DNA of 40,418 bases, taken from a virus. The DNA is taken from IMG/VR virus record IMGVR_UViG_3300009285_000028, positions 1 to 40,418 of that record; one strand, given 5' to 3'. This document shows positions 11,204 through 40,418 of this stretch, piece by piece; within the stretch, counting starts at the first letter, position 1, and each line of letters starts with the position of its first letter. The translations under genes and the position numbers were made by a program. The notes under the pieces were generated by a model. That model made no database searches and had not been told where the DNA came from. It saw nothing but the letters and a program-made list of their open reading frames with translations.

Positions 11204-11457
11204 CCACGCTGCAGGAGATTCTGGACGAGGCTCGCAACCCAGGATTCATCGGCTCTGCGCTCTATCTAGCCGACCGCATCGAAGCCTGGGCCTACGGCGA
11301 GGAGAAGGAGTGCCCGACCGCACACGGGCATGGTCGTTGCCCCACCTGCCACGGCACCGGCACCATCAGCACAGAGAGACTGGTGTTTCGGGTCATGGGC
11401 TACAGCCGCGACGACGTGTACGAACGGCTAGAACAGGAGCTAGGAAGGAAACCATGA
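11200..11457 (+). CDS. Protein with a DnaJ-type CxxCxGxG zinc finger, 85 aa
   Basis: CPTAHGHGRCPTCHGTG. Confidence 0.6.
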   Translation: MTTLQEILDEARNPGFIGSALYLADRIEAWAYGEEKECPTAHGHGRCPTCHGTGTISTERLVFRVMGYSRDDVYERLEQELGRKP

Positions 11458-12203
11458 GCCGTTCCTCTCAGCGCGCTGCCGCAGACCGCGCCCAATGCGC
11501 AATCGATGGGTGCGCTGAGTTCGCTCGAGCGCGAGGTTGGTGCGGGGCGCACTATCAACGATGGAGGCGCTTCGGTGACCCCAATGCGCTGGCGTTGCCG
11601 CATCGCAAGGAGACCGATAGCTCTCGCCGAACCGCCAATGGGACCGCCTACTTCACGGACGAGGGGCGCGCGTTTCAACTTCGGCGTGGCGTCGGCGGGT
11701 CCATTCGCCGCGTCTACGGAGAGGTGCGTGTATGTGAGGGGTGCAAGGAGGAGTTCCTGGCTCGCAAGTTCAGGGGGGCCTGGGGCCGCTTCTGCTCGAC
11801 ACGCTGCGAGAAACGGGGGGAGCGCAATCCGATGCGCCGCAACATGCGCCGTCGAGGCACGGTTGCGAAGCATACGGCCGACCACTGGTTCTCCCGAATT
11901 GTACGGAGCAAGGGGTCCTGCGAACGATGCGGAGGTATTGCTAGCCTGCAATGCGCCCACGTGTTTTCGCGGCTGTATCTCAGCACTCGTTGGGATGAGG
12001 ACAACGCCCTCTGCCTGTGCTCGGGGTGCCACATGTTCTTCACCCATCACCCGATTGAGTGGGAGGATTACATCATCGGCCGGATGGGGGAGGCAGCCTA
12101 CTACGCGCTGCGGCGCAGGGCAGCCACTCCACAGAAGCCGGACTACGAGTCTCTGCTTGACCACCTAACCGACCGCATGTCGGACATGGGGCTGAACGTA
12201 TGA
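11454..12203 (+). CDS. NinG/Rap-like structure-specific endonuclease with an N-terminal Cys-rich domain
   Basis: The C-terminal SCERCGG...LQCAHVFSR...RWDEDNALCLCSGCH pattern resembles lambda NinG. N-terminus CAIDGC...GWCGAHYQRWRRFGDP. Confidence 0.6.
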   Translation: MSRSSQRAAADRAQCAIDGCAEFARARGWCGAHYQRWRRFGDPNALALPHRKETDSSRRTANGTAYFTDEGRAFQLRRGVGGSIRRVYGEVRVCEGCKEEFLARKFRGAWGRFCSTRCEKRGERNPMRRNMRRRGTVAKHTADHWFSRIVRSKGSCERCGGIASLQCAHVFSRLYLSTRWDEDNALCLCSGCHMFFTHHPIEWEDYIIGRMGEAAYYALRRRAATPQKPDYESLLDHLTDRMSDMGLNV

Positions 12204-12270: not shown

Positions 12271-12579
12271 ATGACCGAGAAGGGCTCCGTGGTGGAGCTT
12301 GCCGAGAAGTGGGCACACGCAGAAGCCCCAACAGAGGGCGACCCGATGAAGGTCATGCTCGTCGAGTTACTCACGGGCGAGATTCGGATTCTGGCGAACG
12401 AAGTCCTCCGACTTGTCTCCCTAGCAGAAGCGATGGAGCGGGTCATGGAGGCGGCGGAGGCGGTCGCCGGTAACGGCTACGACGCCGACGGTCGCTACAT
12501 CCTTATGGATGACCGCATGAACGCCCTCCGCTCCGCCCTCCAAGCCCTCCACTCCCTCGAAGAGGAGACAGAGAGATGA
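12271..12579 (+). CDS. Hypothetical protein, 102 aa; paralogue of 16709..17002
   Basis: Shares AEAMERV(M/V)EAA(E/K)A and nucleotide blocks with the second copy. Confidence 0.6.
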   Translation: MTEKGSVVELAEKWAHAEAPTEGDPMKVMLVELLTGEIRILANEVLRLVSLAEAMERVMEAAEAVAGNGYDADGRYILMDDRMNALRSALQALHSLEEETER

Positions 12580-14874: not shown

Positions 14875-14985
14875 AAGGAGCGGTGGGACTCGAACCCACG
14901 ACCTCCGGGACTCGAGGGTCTCGCACGGGGGCGACCCGCACGGTTGCCCTTGCTCCCGGCGCTCTGCCAACTGAGCTACGCTCCC
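14875..14985 (-). tRNA. tRNA-like gene, 111 nt, with a 38-nt insertion in the anticodon loop (candidate loop CUCGAGU, anticodon CGA)
   Basis: The reverse complement folds as acceptor GGGAGCG/CGCUCCU, D arm GCUC-AGUUGGCA-GAGC, anticodon stem CCGGG/CCCGG, variable AGGUC, T arm GUGGG-UUCGAGU-CCCAC. There are 45 nt instead of 7 between the anticodon-stem halves. Confidence 0.6.
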
Positions 14986-16712: not shown

Positions 16713-17002
16713 GTGAGAGCGGAACGGCATACGGAGCACGGTACGACGGCGGTACGGTGGTGGAGGTGCTGGAGTATGCAGCGGGTGACCTTTACCTCGC
16801 AGCGATGGGCGAGGGCAATCCGTTGTCCGCTTCAGATGATGTGCGCGCCGCCATCCCCCGCGCAGAAGCGATGGAGCGGGTGGTGGAGGCGGCGAAGGCT
16901 TGGCGTGCGGGTTCAACCGCCGCGACAGACCAGGGCCTGGTCGGGGCGCTCAATGAGCAGCTCGCTGCCTCCACTCCCCCTCGAAGAGGAGACGAAGGTT
17001 GA
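16709..17002 (+). CDS. Hypothetical protein, 97 aa; paralogue of 12271..12579
   Basis: ATGA overlap; AEAMERVVEAAKA block. Confidence 0.55.
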   Translation: MSESGTAYGARYDGGTVVEVLEYAAGDLYLAAMGEGNPLSASDDVRAAIPRAEAMERVVEAAKAWRAGSTAATDQGLVGALNEQLAASTPPRRGDEG

Positions 17003-17169: not shown

Positions 17170-17175
17170 ACAGAG
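17161..17175 (+). promoter_or_regulatory. Recurrent motif copy B: atGCCCTAGACAGAG
   Basis: The 10-mer GCCCTAGACA is shared with all copies. The downstream CCTGAG(C/G)GC sits at the same offset as in copy C. Confidence 0.45.
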
Positions 17176-17831
17176 GTGGAAGCCTGAGCGCAGTCCTGCA
17201 GGCGAGCAGGAGTCGGCGGGTGGGCCGGTCGGCCACCGAAGAGAGCCAGTATCCCCACGCCACCCCGGCAACGCGAACCGAACCCGCGTTCACCGTGGGC
17301 TTGCACGTCCTGAGGGATCTTGAGGACCATGAGAGGCTGAAGCGTGTAGGGCTCGTGGCCCTCCTTTGTTGAGGGTTCAGGGGTGCGGGGTAGGGGAGAG
17401 CTCGAGTCGAGTGGAGCGTCATCCATCCCTCATCCTGGGTTAGGAGGATGCCACCCGATACGCCACCCCGCCGTCTTGCCCGTGACCGCACCTACCGAGC
17501 GTGAGCCTCGTGCCTAGCTTACCGTAATCACCCTTATGGGCAGGTGTTTGCCCTGCTCAGCGCAGTGATGCGCATGGTGGGTGCTGATACGCACAGTGAG
17601 ATGGGGGCAGTAGCACTACGAACTTGCAGTGCTCTGTCCAACCCACCCCATGCCCCTGCGTACCCCATCTGACCAGGGGGTTTGCACCCGGTCCGTAAAA
17701 AGGAGGGTGTGGTGTTGTGTAGTGTGTCCCGCGTTCGTACGGTGAGAAATCGTTCTGAGTCGGCGTGAAGCGGAAGGAAACGTCGCCTAGCGGTTCGTGC
17801 CTGCGGCCCACTACCGAACCCTTGCTTCCGG

Positions 17832-17877
17832 GGCAGTGCCTTTCCCCCACGGGTCTGTCTGGGGGTCCTGCACTGCC
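17832..17877 (+). other. Extended two-tier hairpin (8 bp + 6 bp) just upstream of motif copy C
   Basis: GGCAGTGC/GCACTGCC pairs outside CCCCCA/TGGGGG, with a 10-nt apical loop and no U-tail. Confidence 0.6.
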
Positions 17878-17890
17878 GCAGTGACGTAGT

Positions 17891-17905
17891 GCGCCCTAGA
17901 CAGGG
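17891..17905 (+). promoter_or_regulatory. Recurrent motif copy C: GCGCCCTAGACAGGG
   Basis: 91 nt upstream of the first late ORF (17996). Confidence 0.5.
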
Positions 17906-17995
17906 GCGGTTTCCTGAGGGCGGGGTCGGTGGAAGACCCTTGTTCGCGTACGTGCGGTCCTCGGGGAAGTGCTGTGGAACGAAAGGGGCTCCGGT

Positions 17996-18103
17996 ATGGG
18001 CAAGAAGAGGGGCGGGGGTAAGCCCATCAAGGGCAAGACCACGAAGAAGCGCACCGGGGAGCGGGTCACGTACCCCAAGGGCCGGCCGCCCAAGCCGAGG
18101 TGA
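17996..18103 (+). CDS. Ultra-basic micro-protein, 35 aa (9 K, 5 R, 7 G; KGRPPKPR AT-hook-like end)
   Basis: 34 of 35 codons end in G/C. Sequence MGKKRGGGKPIKGKTTKKRTGERVTYPKGRPPKPR. Confidence 0.55.
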   Translation: MGKKRGGGKPIKGKTTKKRTGERVTYPKGRPPKPR

Positions 18104-18111
18104 GGTCCCTG

Positions 18112-18225
18112 ATGCCGGCGAAGAAGAAGATGACCCCCAAGCGCAAGGGCATGCACAAGATGCCTGGCGGCAAGATGATGACCGACGCCCAGATGAAGGC
18201 CATGAAGAAGAAGGGCATGAAGTAG
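18112..18225 (+). CDS. Met/Lys-rich micro-protein, 37 aa (9 M, 12 K)
   Basis: SD GAGGTGAGG upstream. 36 of 37 codons end in G/C. Sequence MPAKKKMTPKRKGMHKMPGGKMMTDAQMKAMKKKGMK. Confidence 0.55.
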   Translation: MPAKKKMTPKRKGMHKMPGGKMMTDAQMKAMKKKGMK

Positions 18226-18246
18226 GTGCCCCCGACTGGGGACTAG

Positions 18247-20133
18247 ATGCCCACCCGCACAGACCGACCCCTGCTCATCGACACCTCCGTGAAACGCCGT
18301 GGGCGCGAGGTGCAGGCGCGGCTGCGTAAGAGGTCGGGGACCAAGAACTTCCGCACCATGGACCTGGCTGAAGAGGTCGCCAAGCTCATGGAGCCGCCCA
18401 ACAGGTGGCCGAAGTACCTCATCGCCCAGTCCCTCGGCATCACCGAGCGCAGGGTGGCTCAGGCGCTGGCGTATCGGGCGAAGACGATGCACACCAAGCC
18501 GCTGTACGAGGACATCACCGACGAGGCGCGGGCGATGCTCGCGTGGTCGGTGGACGCCTTCGAGCGGTTCTTCATCACCTTCTCCGGGTACGACTCCTTG
18601 CCCAACCACGTCCGTCCCTGGATAGCGGCCTTCCTGGCACAGCGGAACCTCATCTTGAACGTGCCTCCCCGCCACGCGAAGTCCACCTACTTCATGGTCT
18701 GGATACCCATATGGCTCATCTGCCGGGACCGCAACGTGCAGTTGCTGCTCGTGTCCAAGACGCACGAGTTCGCGCAGAACTGGGCGCTGGAGATTGCGGC
18801 GAACCTCGAGCACAACGAGGGGCTCATCAAGGCGTACGGGGCCTTCAAGGCCGACAAGGAGGGCGACCAGAAGTGGAAGCCCAACTCGGGCACGTTCACC
18901 GTGCTCGGACGGACCAAGACCATCCGGGGCGCGCAGTTCACCGTCGAGTCTCGGGGCATGAACGGCCAGGTGCTCGGCCGTGAGGCGGACTTCATCATGG
19001 TGGACGACCCCACCGACCAGGAAGAGGCCGAATCCGAGACCTCGCGCCGACGCGAGCTGAAGCACCTCCAGGAGCAGGTGTTCACCCGCGCCGAGCCGCA
19101 GGCCGACAAACCCGGCGGACGCATCGCCGTGGTCGGTCAGAGGGTTCACCTGCTGGATGTGTACGGCACGCTCGCCAAGATGGAGTGGGAGATAGGTCCG
19201 AACAAGGGCGAGAAGCTCTGGCACGTCGAGAAGTACCCCGCCGTCTTGGACTGGGACTCCAAGCGGGTCCTGTGGCCGGAACGCCACTCGTGGGACGAGT
19301 TGATGCTCACCTACGCCCGTGTGGGCGGGCACGGGCCGTTCTCGACCCTGTTCCAGCAGGAGCCGCTGCCGGAGGGCTCGGCGCTTGTGACTCAAGCATG
19401 GGTCGAGGGTTGCCGCGACCACTCCCGCAACGCCTTCCAAGGGATGCGTGTGGACGACGCCGGGGCGCAGGTGCCGGTCGTCCGGGTGCTGTCGTTGGAC
19501 CCATCGCCGACGAAGTTCAACGGCATCGTCGTTGGGGACCTGTTCTACAACAAGGACCGCTTCGTGTTCGCCATGACCGAGGCTTACCGCCTCCAGGCGG
19601 GGCAGTACGGGGTCAAGGCCAAGGTGGACGAAATCATCAACCGGGCCAAGCCCGACTACTTCATCTTCGAGGAGTCCGGGTTCCTGCACTGGTTCCGAGA
19701 CGACCCGTGGTTCATGGAGCTGAAGGACCGCGTGAAGCTCGAGCTGCACCACACGGGCGCGAACAAGAACAGCATGGAGTACGGCGTGCAGTCCCTCGCC
19801 GGCGACTTCGAGTTCAAGAACCTCTCGTTCCCCTACGGCGACGACGAGGCGCGGCGCATGAGCGACCTGGTGTCAGGCGAAGCGCTCATCTACCCCTACG
19901 GCGAGACCACCGACATGCTGATGGCGCTGTGGTTCATCAAGTTCAACTACAAGCGCCTCTCTCCGGTGAGGTTCCTGCCCACCCGCGTCAAGGGGACCGA
20001 AGGCAGAGACACCACATGGAGTTGGTACAAGCAGTTGAAGGGCAAGAAGAACACACAGGAGGCGGCCTACCAGAAGTACAAGGCCGACAAGGCCAAGCGG
20101 CAGGCCGAGATGAGGAAGGTGGCAGTTGGCTGA
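18247..20133 (+). CDS. terL: Terminase large subunit with an N-terminal ~100-aa HTH-containing extension
   Basis: Walker A-like NVPPRHAKST, Walker B-like ADFIMVDDP and acidic nuclease-type blocks (VLSLDPS, FIFEESG). Followed by an overlapping portal-size gene. Confidence 0.85.
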   Translation: MPTRTDRPLLIDTSVKRRGREVQARLRKRSGTKNFRTMDLAEEVAKLMEPPNRWPKYLIAQSLGITERRVAQALAYRAKTMHTKPLYEDITDEARAMLAWSVDAFERFFITFSGYDSLPNHVRPWIAAFLAQRNLILNVPPRHAKSTYFMVWIPIWLICRDRNVQLLLVSKTHEFAQNWALEIAANLEHNEGLIKAYGAFKADKEGDQKWKPNSGTFTVLGRTKTIRGAQFTVESRGMNGQVLGREADFIMVDDPTDQEEAESETSRRRELKHLQEQVFTRAEPQADKPGGRIAVVGQRVHLLDVYGTLAKMEWEIGPNKGEKLWHVEKYPAVLDWDSKRVLWPERHSWDELMLTYARVGGHGPFSTLFQQEPLPEGSALVTQAWVEGCRDHSRNAFQGMRVDDAGAQVPVVRVLSLDPSPTKFNGIVVGDLFYNKDRFVFAMTEAYRLQAGQYGVKAKVDEIINRAKPDYFIFEESGFLHWFRDDPWFMELKDRVKLELHHTGANKNSMEYGVQSLAGDFEFKNLSFPYGDDEARRMSDLVSGEALIYPYGETTDMLMALWFIKFNYKRLSPVRFLPTRVKGTEGRDTTWSWYKQLKGKKNTQEAAYQKYKADKAKRQAEMRKVAVG

Positions 20134-39676: not shown

Positions 39677-40418
39677 GCCTGAGTCAGGCCACACTCGTCC
39701 AGCGTGTCCGGTGGGAACTCGGGGACCGCCCCTGGGAGGATTCCGCCCTCACGGCCGCCTCTGCCTCCTCGACCATCACGGGGGCCACCACGGGCTACTG
39801 GGTGAAGGGAGACATCGGGGAGTTCATCGAGGACGGCGACACGTGGCTGACCATCTCCGAGACCACGGGAACCATCACGGCAACCCGCTCCTACGACGGC
39901 TCCACCGGGGCCGCGCACACCACCAAGCGTGGCCTGAAGAACCCCCGCTATCGGTACAACGAAATCGTCAACGCCATCGAGTCCGTCATCCAGGACCAGC
40001 TCTGGCCGAAGGCCTGGAAGAAGGTGGCCGACACCATCACGCCGCTGTCCACGACGACGTGGTACGACCTCGCTGCCGAGGCGCGGGGCCTCATCAACGT
40101 GCGGCAGCTCTACGGGACCAGCGACGCCAAGGAAGGGCGCTACGGGGGACGCCACAGCGCCTACCCGGTCTGGTTCCGACGCAACATGACCACGAGCCTC
40201 GTCACCTCGGGCGTGGGACTGCGGTTCCCCGGCGGCATGTACCACGCCTCCAACACGGTGAACGTGGACTACGCCGCCAAGATAACGGACACCATCGCCA
40301 CCCCCAACCACTCAGACCTGAGTGACGGCGATGCCGTGGTCGAGGCCATCATCTTCGGGGCGGTCTCCCACCTCGAGGGGGCGCTCGAGAACCGCAAGCC
40401 GCGCAAGCCGCGCCAGGA
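39673..40418 (+). CDS. Virion protein, 288 aa in total, truncated by linearisation (continues as 78..198)
   Basis: ATGA overlap at 39673. The open frame runs to the window end and is in frame with 1..198. Confidence 0.7.
   Translation, partial: MSLSQATLVQRVRWELGDRPWEDSALTAASASSTITGATTGYWVKGDIGEFIEDGDTWLTISETTGTITATRSYDGSTGAAHTTKRGLKNPRYRYNEIVNAIESVIQDQLWPKAWKKVADTITPLSTTTWYDLAAEARGLINVRQLYGTSDAKEGRYGGRHSAYPVWFRRNMTTSLVTSGVGLRFPGGMYHASNTVNVDYAAKITDTIATPNHSDLSDGDAVVEAIIFGAVSHLEGALENRKPRKPRQ
40342..40418. repeat. Second copy of the 77-nt terminal repeat
   Basis: Identical to nt 1-77. Confidence 0.95.

Follow-up and report, generated by a model that had tools for sequence, protein, structure and literature searches.

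Two polycationic micro-genes directly upstream of the large terminase gene of a phage recorded in IMG/VR

Setting and coding signals of ORF1 and ORF2

In the phage genome analysed here, two very small ORFs with strongly basic products lie directly upstream of terL, where a small terminase (TerS) gene is expected, and this raises the question of whether they replace the small terminase or serve another purpose. The window, i.e. the whole stretch of 40,418 nucleotides that was analysed, is a complete IMG/VR virus record (IMGVR_UViG_3300009285_000028), and a WhiB gene present in it indicates an actinobacterial host. The large terminase (TerL, 628 aa; phrog_38, E = 4.6e-45) is encoded at positions 18247–20133 of the + strand and is followed in the late region by the portal gene, small genes, the gene of a 2014-aa protein and the capsid gene. 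What the record gives as a 'direct terminal repeat' (positions 1–77 and 40342–40418) is an exact overlap of 77 nt; it lies inside a coding region and represents an artefact of assembly circularisation and not a physical end. Two further features of the window were recorded. A segment of the – strand (14875–14985) reached an Rfam tRNA score of 54 bits over 111 nt, with no tRNA reported there by ARAGORN, and a 46-nt direct repeat (87% identical, 12416–12461 and 16854–16899) links two small early genes located 4.4 kb apart.

Both micro-ORFs were found with the coordinates and products that an earlier note had given for them. ORF1 (17996–18103, + strand) encodes a polycationic micro-protein of 35 aa that is rich in Gly, Lys, Pro and Thr (net charge +13, pI 11.9), with 9 Lys and 5 Arg among its residues and the C-terminal end KGRPPKPR. 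It is nearly devoid of hydrophobic residues and, being Gly/Pro/Lys-rich, has no hydrophobic core. ORF2 (18112–18225, + strand) encodes a Met/Lys-rich micro-protein of 37 aa (9 Met, 12 Lys and 1 Arg; net charge +12), which belongs to the 'GMHKMPGGKMM' family described below. The recount agreed with the residue numbers reported before (for ORF1, 14 basic residues of 35), and the composition is unusual, as had been claimed, since Met and Lys make up only 2.4% and 3.7%, respectively, of the large proteins of this phage.

A Shine-Dalgarno site could be read from the sequence in front of each ORF. That of ORF1 (GAAAGGGG, 17981–17988, + strand) is separated from the ATG by a 7-nt spacer, whereas that of ORF2 (GAGGTGAGG, 18097–18105, + strand), already judged good in the earlier note, ends 6 nt before the ATG and overlaps the stop codon of ORF1 (18101–18103). 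A GTG at position 18100 also overlaps this stop codon, as GTGA. The two ORFs were considered as a single frameshifted gene, and this was rejected: they are read in different frames, a Shine-Dalgarno site of its own precedes each, and relatives exist that have ORF1 but not ORF2.

The codon usage of both ORFs gave a strong coding signal. All codons but one end in G or C (34/35 in ORF1 and 36/37 in ORF2), versus a GC3 of 0.87 in nine confident genes of the genome. None of ~10,300 off-frame windows taken from these nine genes reached the values of ORF1 and ORF2, whereas ~10% of the in-frame windows did. Lys is encoded by AAG at all 21 positions in the two ORFs; over the whole genome AAG outnumbers AAA by 198 to 7. 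With the exception of the TerL tail, ORF1 and ORF2 are the only ORFs of up to 70 aa on both strands of the 40-kb genome that combine at least 30% Lys plus Arg with a GC3 of at least 0.85.

Homologues of ORF1 (P0030 and P0031) were present in L033, L034, L035 and L050. The 90% cluster of ORF1 includes P0030, a form of 34 aa that three further assemblies contain. One of these is a contig of 33.5 kb, recorded as GCA_041643135.1, JBGGHD010000324.1, and its TerL shares 96% identity with that of the window. Comparison of ORF1 with the three P0030 copies revealed 10–13 synonymous versus 6 non-synonymous differences (dN/dS 0.10–0.15), and the copies differ among themselves by 1–4 synonymous and 0 non-synonymous changes. 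ORF1 is 87% identical to these copies, versus 67% over the 100 nt upstream. Inside the clade of ORF2, dN/dS was 0.11–0.49, and the whole ORF1-ORF2-terL stretch recurs in a second sample with one substitution in 650 nt (L050, 99.8% identical), the phage being present at groundwater sites. As judged from these substitution patterns, ORF1 and ORF2 are genuine genes under purifying selection. They are unrelated to each other, and the homology search with ORF1 yielded no distant relatives and no fused or longer forms.

With regard to transcription, a copy of a motif shared by late blocks (core GCCCTAGACAG) is located at 17891–17905 of the + strand, ~90 nt upstream of ORF1. With up to one mismatch, the 11-mer GCCCTAGACAG occurs in five copies on the + strand (2863, 17163, 17893, 30343 and 35313) and in a sixth on the – strand, 0.76 matches being expected over both strands. 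The site aligned with it in L033 and L034 reads GCGCCCTTGACTG. Since CCCTTGACTG is found at the aligned site of relatives, the motif is a possible late promoter of the phage, its core resembling a -35 element. This candidate promoter ahead of the two genes, together with the gene order of the late region, suggests that ORF1 and ORF2 are the first cistrons of a packaging/head operon. At the other end of the pair, minimum-free-energy folding gave a possible coupling hairpin (18213–18252, + strand), in which the end of ORF2 (GGGCAU) pairs with the start of TerL (AUGCCC) and the inner stem covers the GGGG Shine-Dalgarno site of TerL. Compared with shuffled sequence, this hairpin showed no gain in stability (z = 0.76).

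The ORF2 family and the exchange of genes in front of terL

In the homology search, for which the 41-aa GTG-started form of ORF2 was used as query, 11 further 90% clusters of 35–44 aa were retrieved. Eleven positions are invariant in the family: G13, M14, H15, K16, M17, G20, K21, M22, M23, A26 and M28. In the 12-sequence alignment ORF2 shows both features by which the family is defined here, a Lys-rich N-terminus and these invariant positions, in proteins of 36–82 aa. A profile search run exhaustively over 1.84 billion representatives returned 10 true members (36–82 aa) with the same core and no fused forms; a 718-aa match was discarded as a false positive due to a repeated NYKLPGGKTV motif. 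None of 185,579 prokaryote species genomes contained a member of the family. Neither tblastn of ORF1 and ORF2 (low-complexity filter on) nor megablast of the region gave a match among GenBank phages; Pfam, PHROGs and NCBIfam contained no match for either ORF, and the PDB sequence search (E <= 10) no chain for ORF1 or for the profile of ORF2. Look-ups in protein atlases led to unnamed clusters only, and a literature search, on the ORF2 motif and on small basic phage proteins that are packaged, brought up nothing relevant. On the strength of these searches, ORF2 is a member of an undescribed phage micro-protein family that is confined to phages. ORF1, too, belongs to no described family; tiny basic late phage proteins are already known as a general kind.

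The ORF2 family is better conserved than the terminase that accompanies it. ORF2 is 81% and 76% identical to the copies of L025 and L026, whereas the corresponding TerL proteins share only 41% and 55% identity. Every ORF2-bearing lineage of this TerL clade has ORF2 just upstream of terL-portal. Beyond the clade, other phage types have members too, as have viral contigs with a GC content of 34–57%, and the family spans phages of 34–66% GC. One of these members lies between the capsid gene and an SU10-type adaptor gene, among small genes encoding DUF6321 and DUF6496 proteins; others are located ~0.7 kb downstream of the major head protein gene (phrog_1357), downstream of a portal gene (phrog_1216) and a holin-like gene, and upstream of a virion structural protein gene. 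In one lineage an HNH endonuclease gene, the ORF2-type gene and the gene of a CBM-like protein follow each other upstream of the endolysin gene.

An AlphaFold model of ORF2, built on the 12-sequence alignment and of moderate confidence (mean pLDDT 73.5; 81–87 at residues 11–30), predicts a disordered Lys arm (residues 1–12), a beta-hairpin (14–24) whose strands 14–16 and 22–24 are joined by a Pro-Gly-Gly turn, and a helix (25–35) starting with a Thr/Ser-Asp-x-Glu/Gln cap. The invariant methionines are the sole hydrophobic side chains of this mini-domain, and the odd Met composition of ORF2 may be explained by their forming a mini-core. Foldseek returned no significant match for the model, the best being RING-H2 domains with E > 6. 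The predicted topology, hairpin then helix, resembles the classical beta-beta-alpha mini-fold of C2H2 zinc fingers, and Met14 and Met17 of the hairpin and Met28 and Met31/32 of the helix would be placed like the Cys/His ligands of a zinc finger. Unlike C2H2 zinc fingers, ORF2 lacks Cys and has only one His, and a metal dependence of ORF2 is pure speculation.

Comparison of the relatives revealed a rapid exchange of genes in this slot. In the relative whose TerL is 96% identical, ORF1 is present and ORF2 is absent, the alignment showing a clean indel of ~150 bp, and ORF1 abuts terL with a GTGA overlap; in both L033 and L034 the stop codon of ORF1 overlaps the GTG start of TerL. Conversely, ORF1 is missing from the ORF2-bearing lineages L025–L030. 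In L026 and L027 a 78-aa gene precedes ORF2 and ORFs of 53 and 76 aa follow it, whereas in L025 and L028–L030 its companions are a tiny membrane peptide and a 44–46-aa basic protein. No member of the ORF2 family was found in two complete related genomes. An additional basic micro-gene lies upstream of ORF1 in L034, and in L003, L005, L006, L007, L009, L010 and L017, which are relatives at 44–65% TerL identity, the slot is taken by further basic micro-genes. L003, L005, L006 and L017 carry a family of the MPFKSE.QRRY type, and L007, L009 and L010 different micro-proteins. When the slot peptides of the relatives were scanned against Pfam, PHROGs and NCBIfam, no family was assigned, and a single weak match to phrog_1375 (E = 0.026) was obtained.

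The slot is filled from four or five families of tiny basic genes, if not more, along with tiny membrane genes. Since its members differ between relatives, it is the type of gene (tiny, strongly basic and located before terL) that is kept, and not any single gene. Both frames are under purifying selection, but neither is kept in all close relatives. ORF1 and ORF2 are accessory genes that are gained and lost like cassettes and are dispensable at the level of the clade.

Several other features of this slot were observed. Tiny membrane peptides often accompany the micro-proteins in relatives; single-helix membrane micro-peptides of 30–32 aa lie directly before terL in L017 (1564–1662), L003/L008 (~1480–1578) and L007 (~1390–1488), and another precedes the ORF2 homologue of L028 (3–92), whereas the window has none. 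HNH endonuclease genes are found a few genes upstream of the slot in L026 (2–856), L027 (212–787) and L033 (1048–1443), and upstream of the micro-gene in an unrelated phage with an ORF2-family member (L036, 5597–5998); the window has only a weak HNH_2 match, far off at 11310–12203. The 44–46-aa slot protein that follows the ORF2 homologues of L025 and L028–L030 matches the N-terminal ~36 residues of a 438-aa protein annotated as head maturation protease in Edwardsiella phage Edno5 (gp06; L048, 4007–4120), in GF-2 and in Pantoea phage PA-1. This slot family is fused to a head maturation protease, which links it to head assembly. The slot family with the MPFKSE.QRRY / MPYKS..QRRY signature has a 72-aa homologue in gp48 of Streptomyces phage FlowerPower (L049, 3001–3219), a cultured member of the Beephvirinae. 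Gp48 combines the N-terminus of the slot family with a Lys/Ala-rich tail, and its gene adjoins the holin gene.

The small-terminase question and the N-terminal domain of TerL

No conventional TerS was detectable, in keeping with the earlier note, which had seen no ORF of TerS size: a six-frame search of the genome with four TerS Pfam families (PF03592, PF05119, PF06056 and PF16677) gave nothing at E <= 1, and Pfam and PHROG scans of the neighbouring ORFs revealed no TerS family. ORF1 and ORF2 share with TerS the position immediately upstream of terL and a basic, presumably DNA-binding character. However, TerS proteins have ~100–200 aa, a helix-turn-helix (HTH) and a ring-forming oligomerisation domain, whereas ORF1 and ORF2, with 35–37 aa, have none of these; nor do they show the TerS sequence families or the retention with TerL. 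The TerS role proposed for them is not supported. Against it speak the exchange of genes described above, neither being kept with TerL and ORF2 being gone beside a 96% identical TerL, and also the genes of the ORF2 family elsewhere, which adjoin capsid, portal or adaptor genes and not TerL. ORF1 and ORF2 most likely do not replace the small terminase.

The answer seems to lie in TerL itself. In tblastn searches TerL matched actinophage terminases from residue ~131 onward only. Residues 1 to ~135 (18247–18650) form an N-terminal domain, located ahead of the ATPase, that could be aligned across 13 relatives and whose pattern reads as an HTH. A model of this region is helical (pLDDT 82), with the HTH formed by helices 56–63 and 67–81, and Foldseek returned weak rows only for it, mostly of HTH DNA binders (ParB/Spo0J and the DNA-binding domain of DeoR). 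The predicted presence of this domain also speaks against the idea that the micro-ORFs are a minimal DNA-recognition component.

The Beephvirinae, here the Streptomyces podophages Immanuel3 and Dennebes, provide a comparison. Their TerL is a distant homologue, with ~25% identity from residue ~131. In the cultured Beephvirinae a TerL of 660 aa is encoded by gene 1 and has an N-terminal extension that, by eye only, looks basic and HTH-like; their annotation contains no TerS, and terL is preceded by a long non-coding stretch. Unlike the window, they have no basic micro-ORFs in the 640–680 nt before terL. Because their TerL begins 640–680 nt from the left end, the genome ends of the phage studied here probably lie, by analogy, in the 0.83-kb non-coding stretch 17170–17995. 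The HTH domain of TerL, together with Beephvirinae that lack both TerS and micro-ORFs, makes DNA recognition built into TerL the simpler answer. More plausibly than by the micro-proteins, the DNA of this TerS-less podophage clade would be recognised by the modelled HTH domain fused to the N-terminus of TerL, and this domain is a probable functional TerS-TerL fusion.

The earlier suggestion of an AT-hook-like core in ORF1 was not upheld. ORF1 ends in K-G-R-P-P-K-P-R and, like AT-hooks of the HMGA type, has a GRP core amid basic and Pro residues, which is kept in L033; compared with the R-G-R-P core of AT-hooks, the first Arg is replaced by Lys, and the AT-hook family PF02178 had no match in the genome at E <= 10.

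Proposed role of the micro-proteins and alternatives

Our tentative reading of these genes, to which we give somewhat less than an even chance, is that ORF1 and ORF2 encode accessory late polycations that would bind the phage DNA at or after packaging. As first cistrons of the packaging/head operon behind the late promoter-like motif, the two ~4-kDa peptides would be translationally linked to each other, and probably also to terL, and would be produced late and in bulk along with terminase, portal and capsid. ORF1 would be a disordered Gly/Lys/Pro/Arg peptide and ORF2 a mini-domain comprising a Lys-rich arm, a Gly-turn beta-hairpin, an N-capped helix and a Lys-rich tail. Both would bind the genome electrostatically, ORF2 adding a specific docking fold. 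During packaging or afterwards, their role would be that of a counter-ion, a condensing agent or a protective passenger, and they may travel with the DNA. An action in or around the filling capsid is suggested by the presence of ORF2-type genes in the head or late modules of several unrelated phages and by a slot family that is fused to a head protease. Two observations weigh on the other side: the genes of the ORF2 family are not always beside packaging genes (as in the HNH/CBM-like lineage), and a pure counter-ion would not need the strict Gly-Met-His-Lys-Met...Met-Met motif, which points to a specific partner or ligand.

Polycations that condense DNA or are carried inside the particle are exemplified by the core peptide Mu and protein VII of adenovirus and by the internal proteins IPI–III of phage T4. 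ORF1 and ORF2 are, like these, small, very basic and late, the association with the genome being what is proposed here; they have no sequence relationship to them. Closer in setting are the tiny basic head-module proteins DUF6496 and DUF6321, which are encoded together with a member of the ORF2 family in a series of small genes that separates the capsid gene from the adaptor gene; these are different families, and ORF2 matches neither. To our knowledge, it is not established that tailed phages package polycations along with their DNA, and protamine-like peptides are not known from them.

The specific partner suggested by the ORF2 motif could belong to the host. ORF1 and ORF2 would then be effectors, delivered with the DNA or without it, whose target is a component common to all hosts (the ribosome or rRNA, other RNA, or a conserved enzyme) or which counter a defence system. 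A universal partner would fit a motif that is conserved above TerL over phages of 34–66% GC, and accessory genes of host interaction are typically gained and lost in such a cassette-like manner. However, no partner was found for either protein, and the genes are located consistently in late or structural modules, not in early regions. Mimicry of small basic ribosomal or nucleoid proteins, which the earlier note had considered, received no support from the NCBIfam and PDB sequence searches: neither protein showed likeness to small ribosomal proteins (no NCBIfam match to bL37, bS22, Thx, bL36 or bL34 at E <= 10) or to any NCBIfam or PDB entry. We regard a host-directed role as unlikely, if worth keeping in view.

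A bolder version of the DNA-binding role, which we consider doubtful, would make ORF2 a new nucleic-acid-binding beta-beta-alpha 'methionine finger' with lysine arms, loaded with the DNA by diverse tailed phages. In it, the invariant Met and His residues may form the core, or a ligand set of the Cu(I)/Zn type, and the protein may be packaged in the manner of a micro-histone or protamine, or may travel as a protective passenger.

A part in the specificity of packaging, with ORF1 and ORF2 binding the pac or cos site or the N-terminal domain of TerL and being needed for packaging to start, is improbable. It would agree with their location directly before terL, with the overlap of the ORF1 stop and the TerL start in L033 and L034, with a non-coding region of 0.83 kb just upstream that probably contains the genome ends, and with a genome in which no TerS family is detectable. 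Neither gene, however, is retained across close relatives, genes of the ORF2 family are remote from any terminase in other phages, TerL appears to have an HTH domain of its own, proteins of 35–37 aa offer no oligomerisation domain and no HTH, and the Beephvirinae package their DNA without such micro-genes.

The arrangement of the genes also allows a purely regulatory reading, in which translation of the ORFs would open the ribosome-binding site of terL by termination-reinitiation coupling and the peptides would be irrelevant. The ORF1 stop inside the Shine-Dalgarno site of ORF2, the overlap of this stop with the TerL GTG in relatives and the hairpin between the 3' end of ORF2 and the start codon of TerL are in line with it. 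Against it, purifying selection acts on the amino-acid sequences of ORF1 and ORF2, invariant residues mark the ORF2 family, which is also found without terL downstream, and the stability of the hairpin does not exceed that of shuffled sequence. As the sole function this is very unlikely; translational coupling may well co-exist with a function of the peptides.

Membrane-active cationic lysis peptides are known, an example being the 'disruptin' gp28 of phage phiKT, and ORF1 and ORF2 are small, strongly cationic and predicted to be expressed late; moreover, the slot-family relative of FlowerPower adjoins the holin, and one member of the ORF2 family lies downstream of a holin-like gene. Neither protein has a hydrophobic face of Leu, Ile, Phe or Trp, ORF1 having almost no hydrophobic residues at all, and a lytic action of this kind is highly improbable. 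Finally, that both are chance ORFs, which might be supposed from their extreme shortness and their absence from Pfam, PHROGs and NCBIfam, appears effectively refuted by a codon bias exceeding every off-frame window, by the Shine-Dalgarno sites and by the excess of synonymous changes in independent assemblies.

Whichever role applies, this locus documents a hot spot before terL at which micro-genes are swapped, and genes of this size are missed in phages by gene callers and family databases. With ORF2, a micro-protein family becomes apparent whose members occur in phages of widely differing hosts and are conserved more strictly than the terminase; for one of the slot families, gp48 of FlowerPower, the sole cultured candidate encountered, offers a culturable handle for genetics. 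Should the 'methionine finger' prove true, ORF1, ORF2 and the slot families would represent an overlooked general class of co-packaged polycationic micro-proteins of tailed phages. According to the textbook view, the DNA of tailed phages is condensed by cations and polyamines only; if late polycations such as ORF1 and ORF2 travel with the packaged genome or act on it, a protein component would be added to this process.
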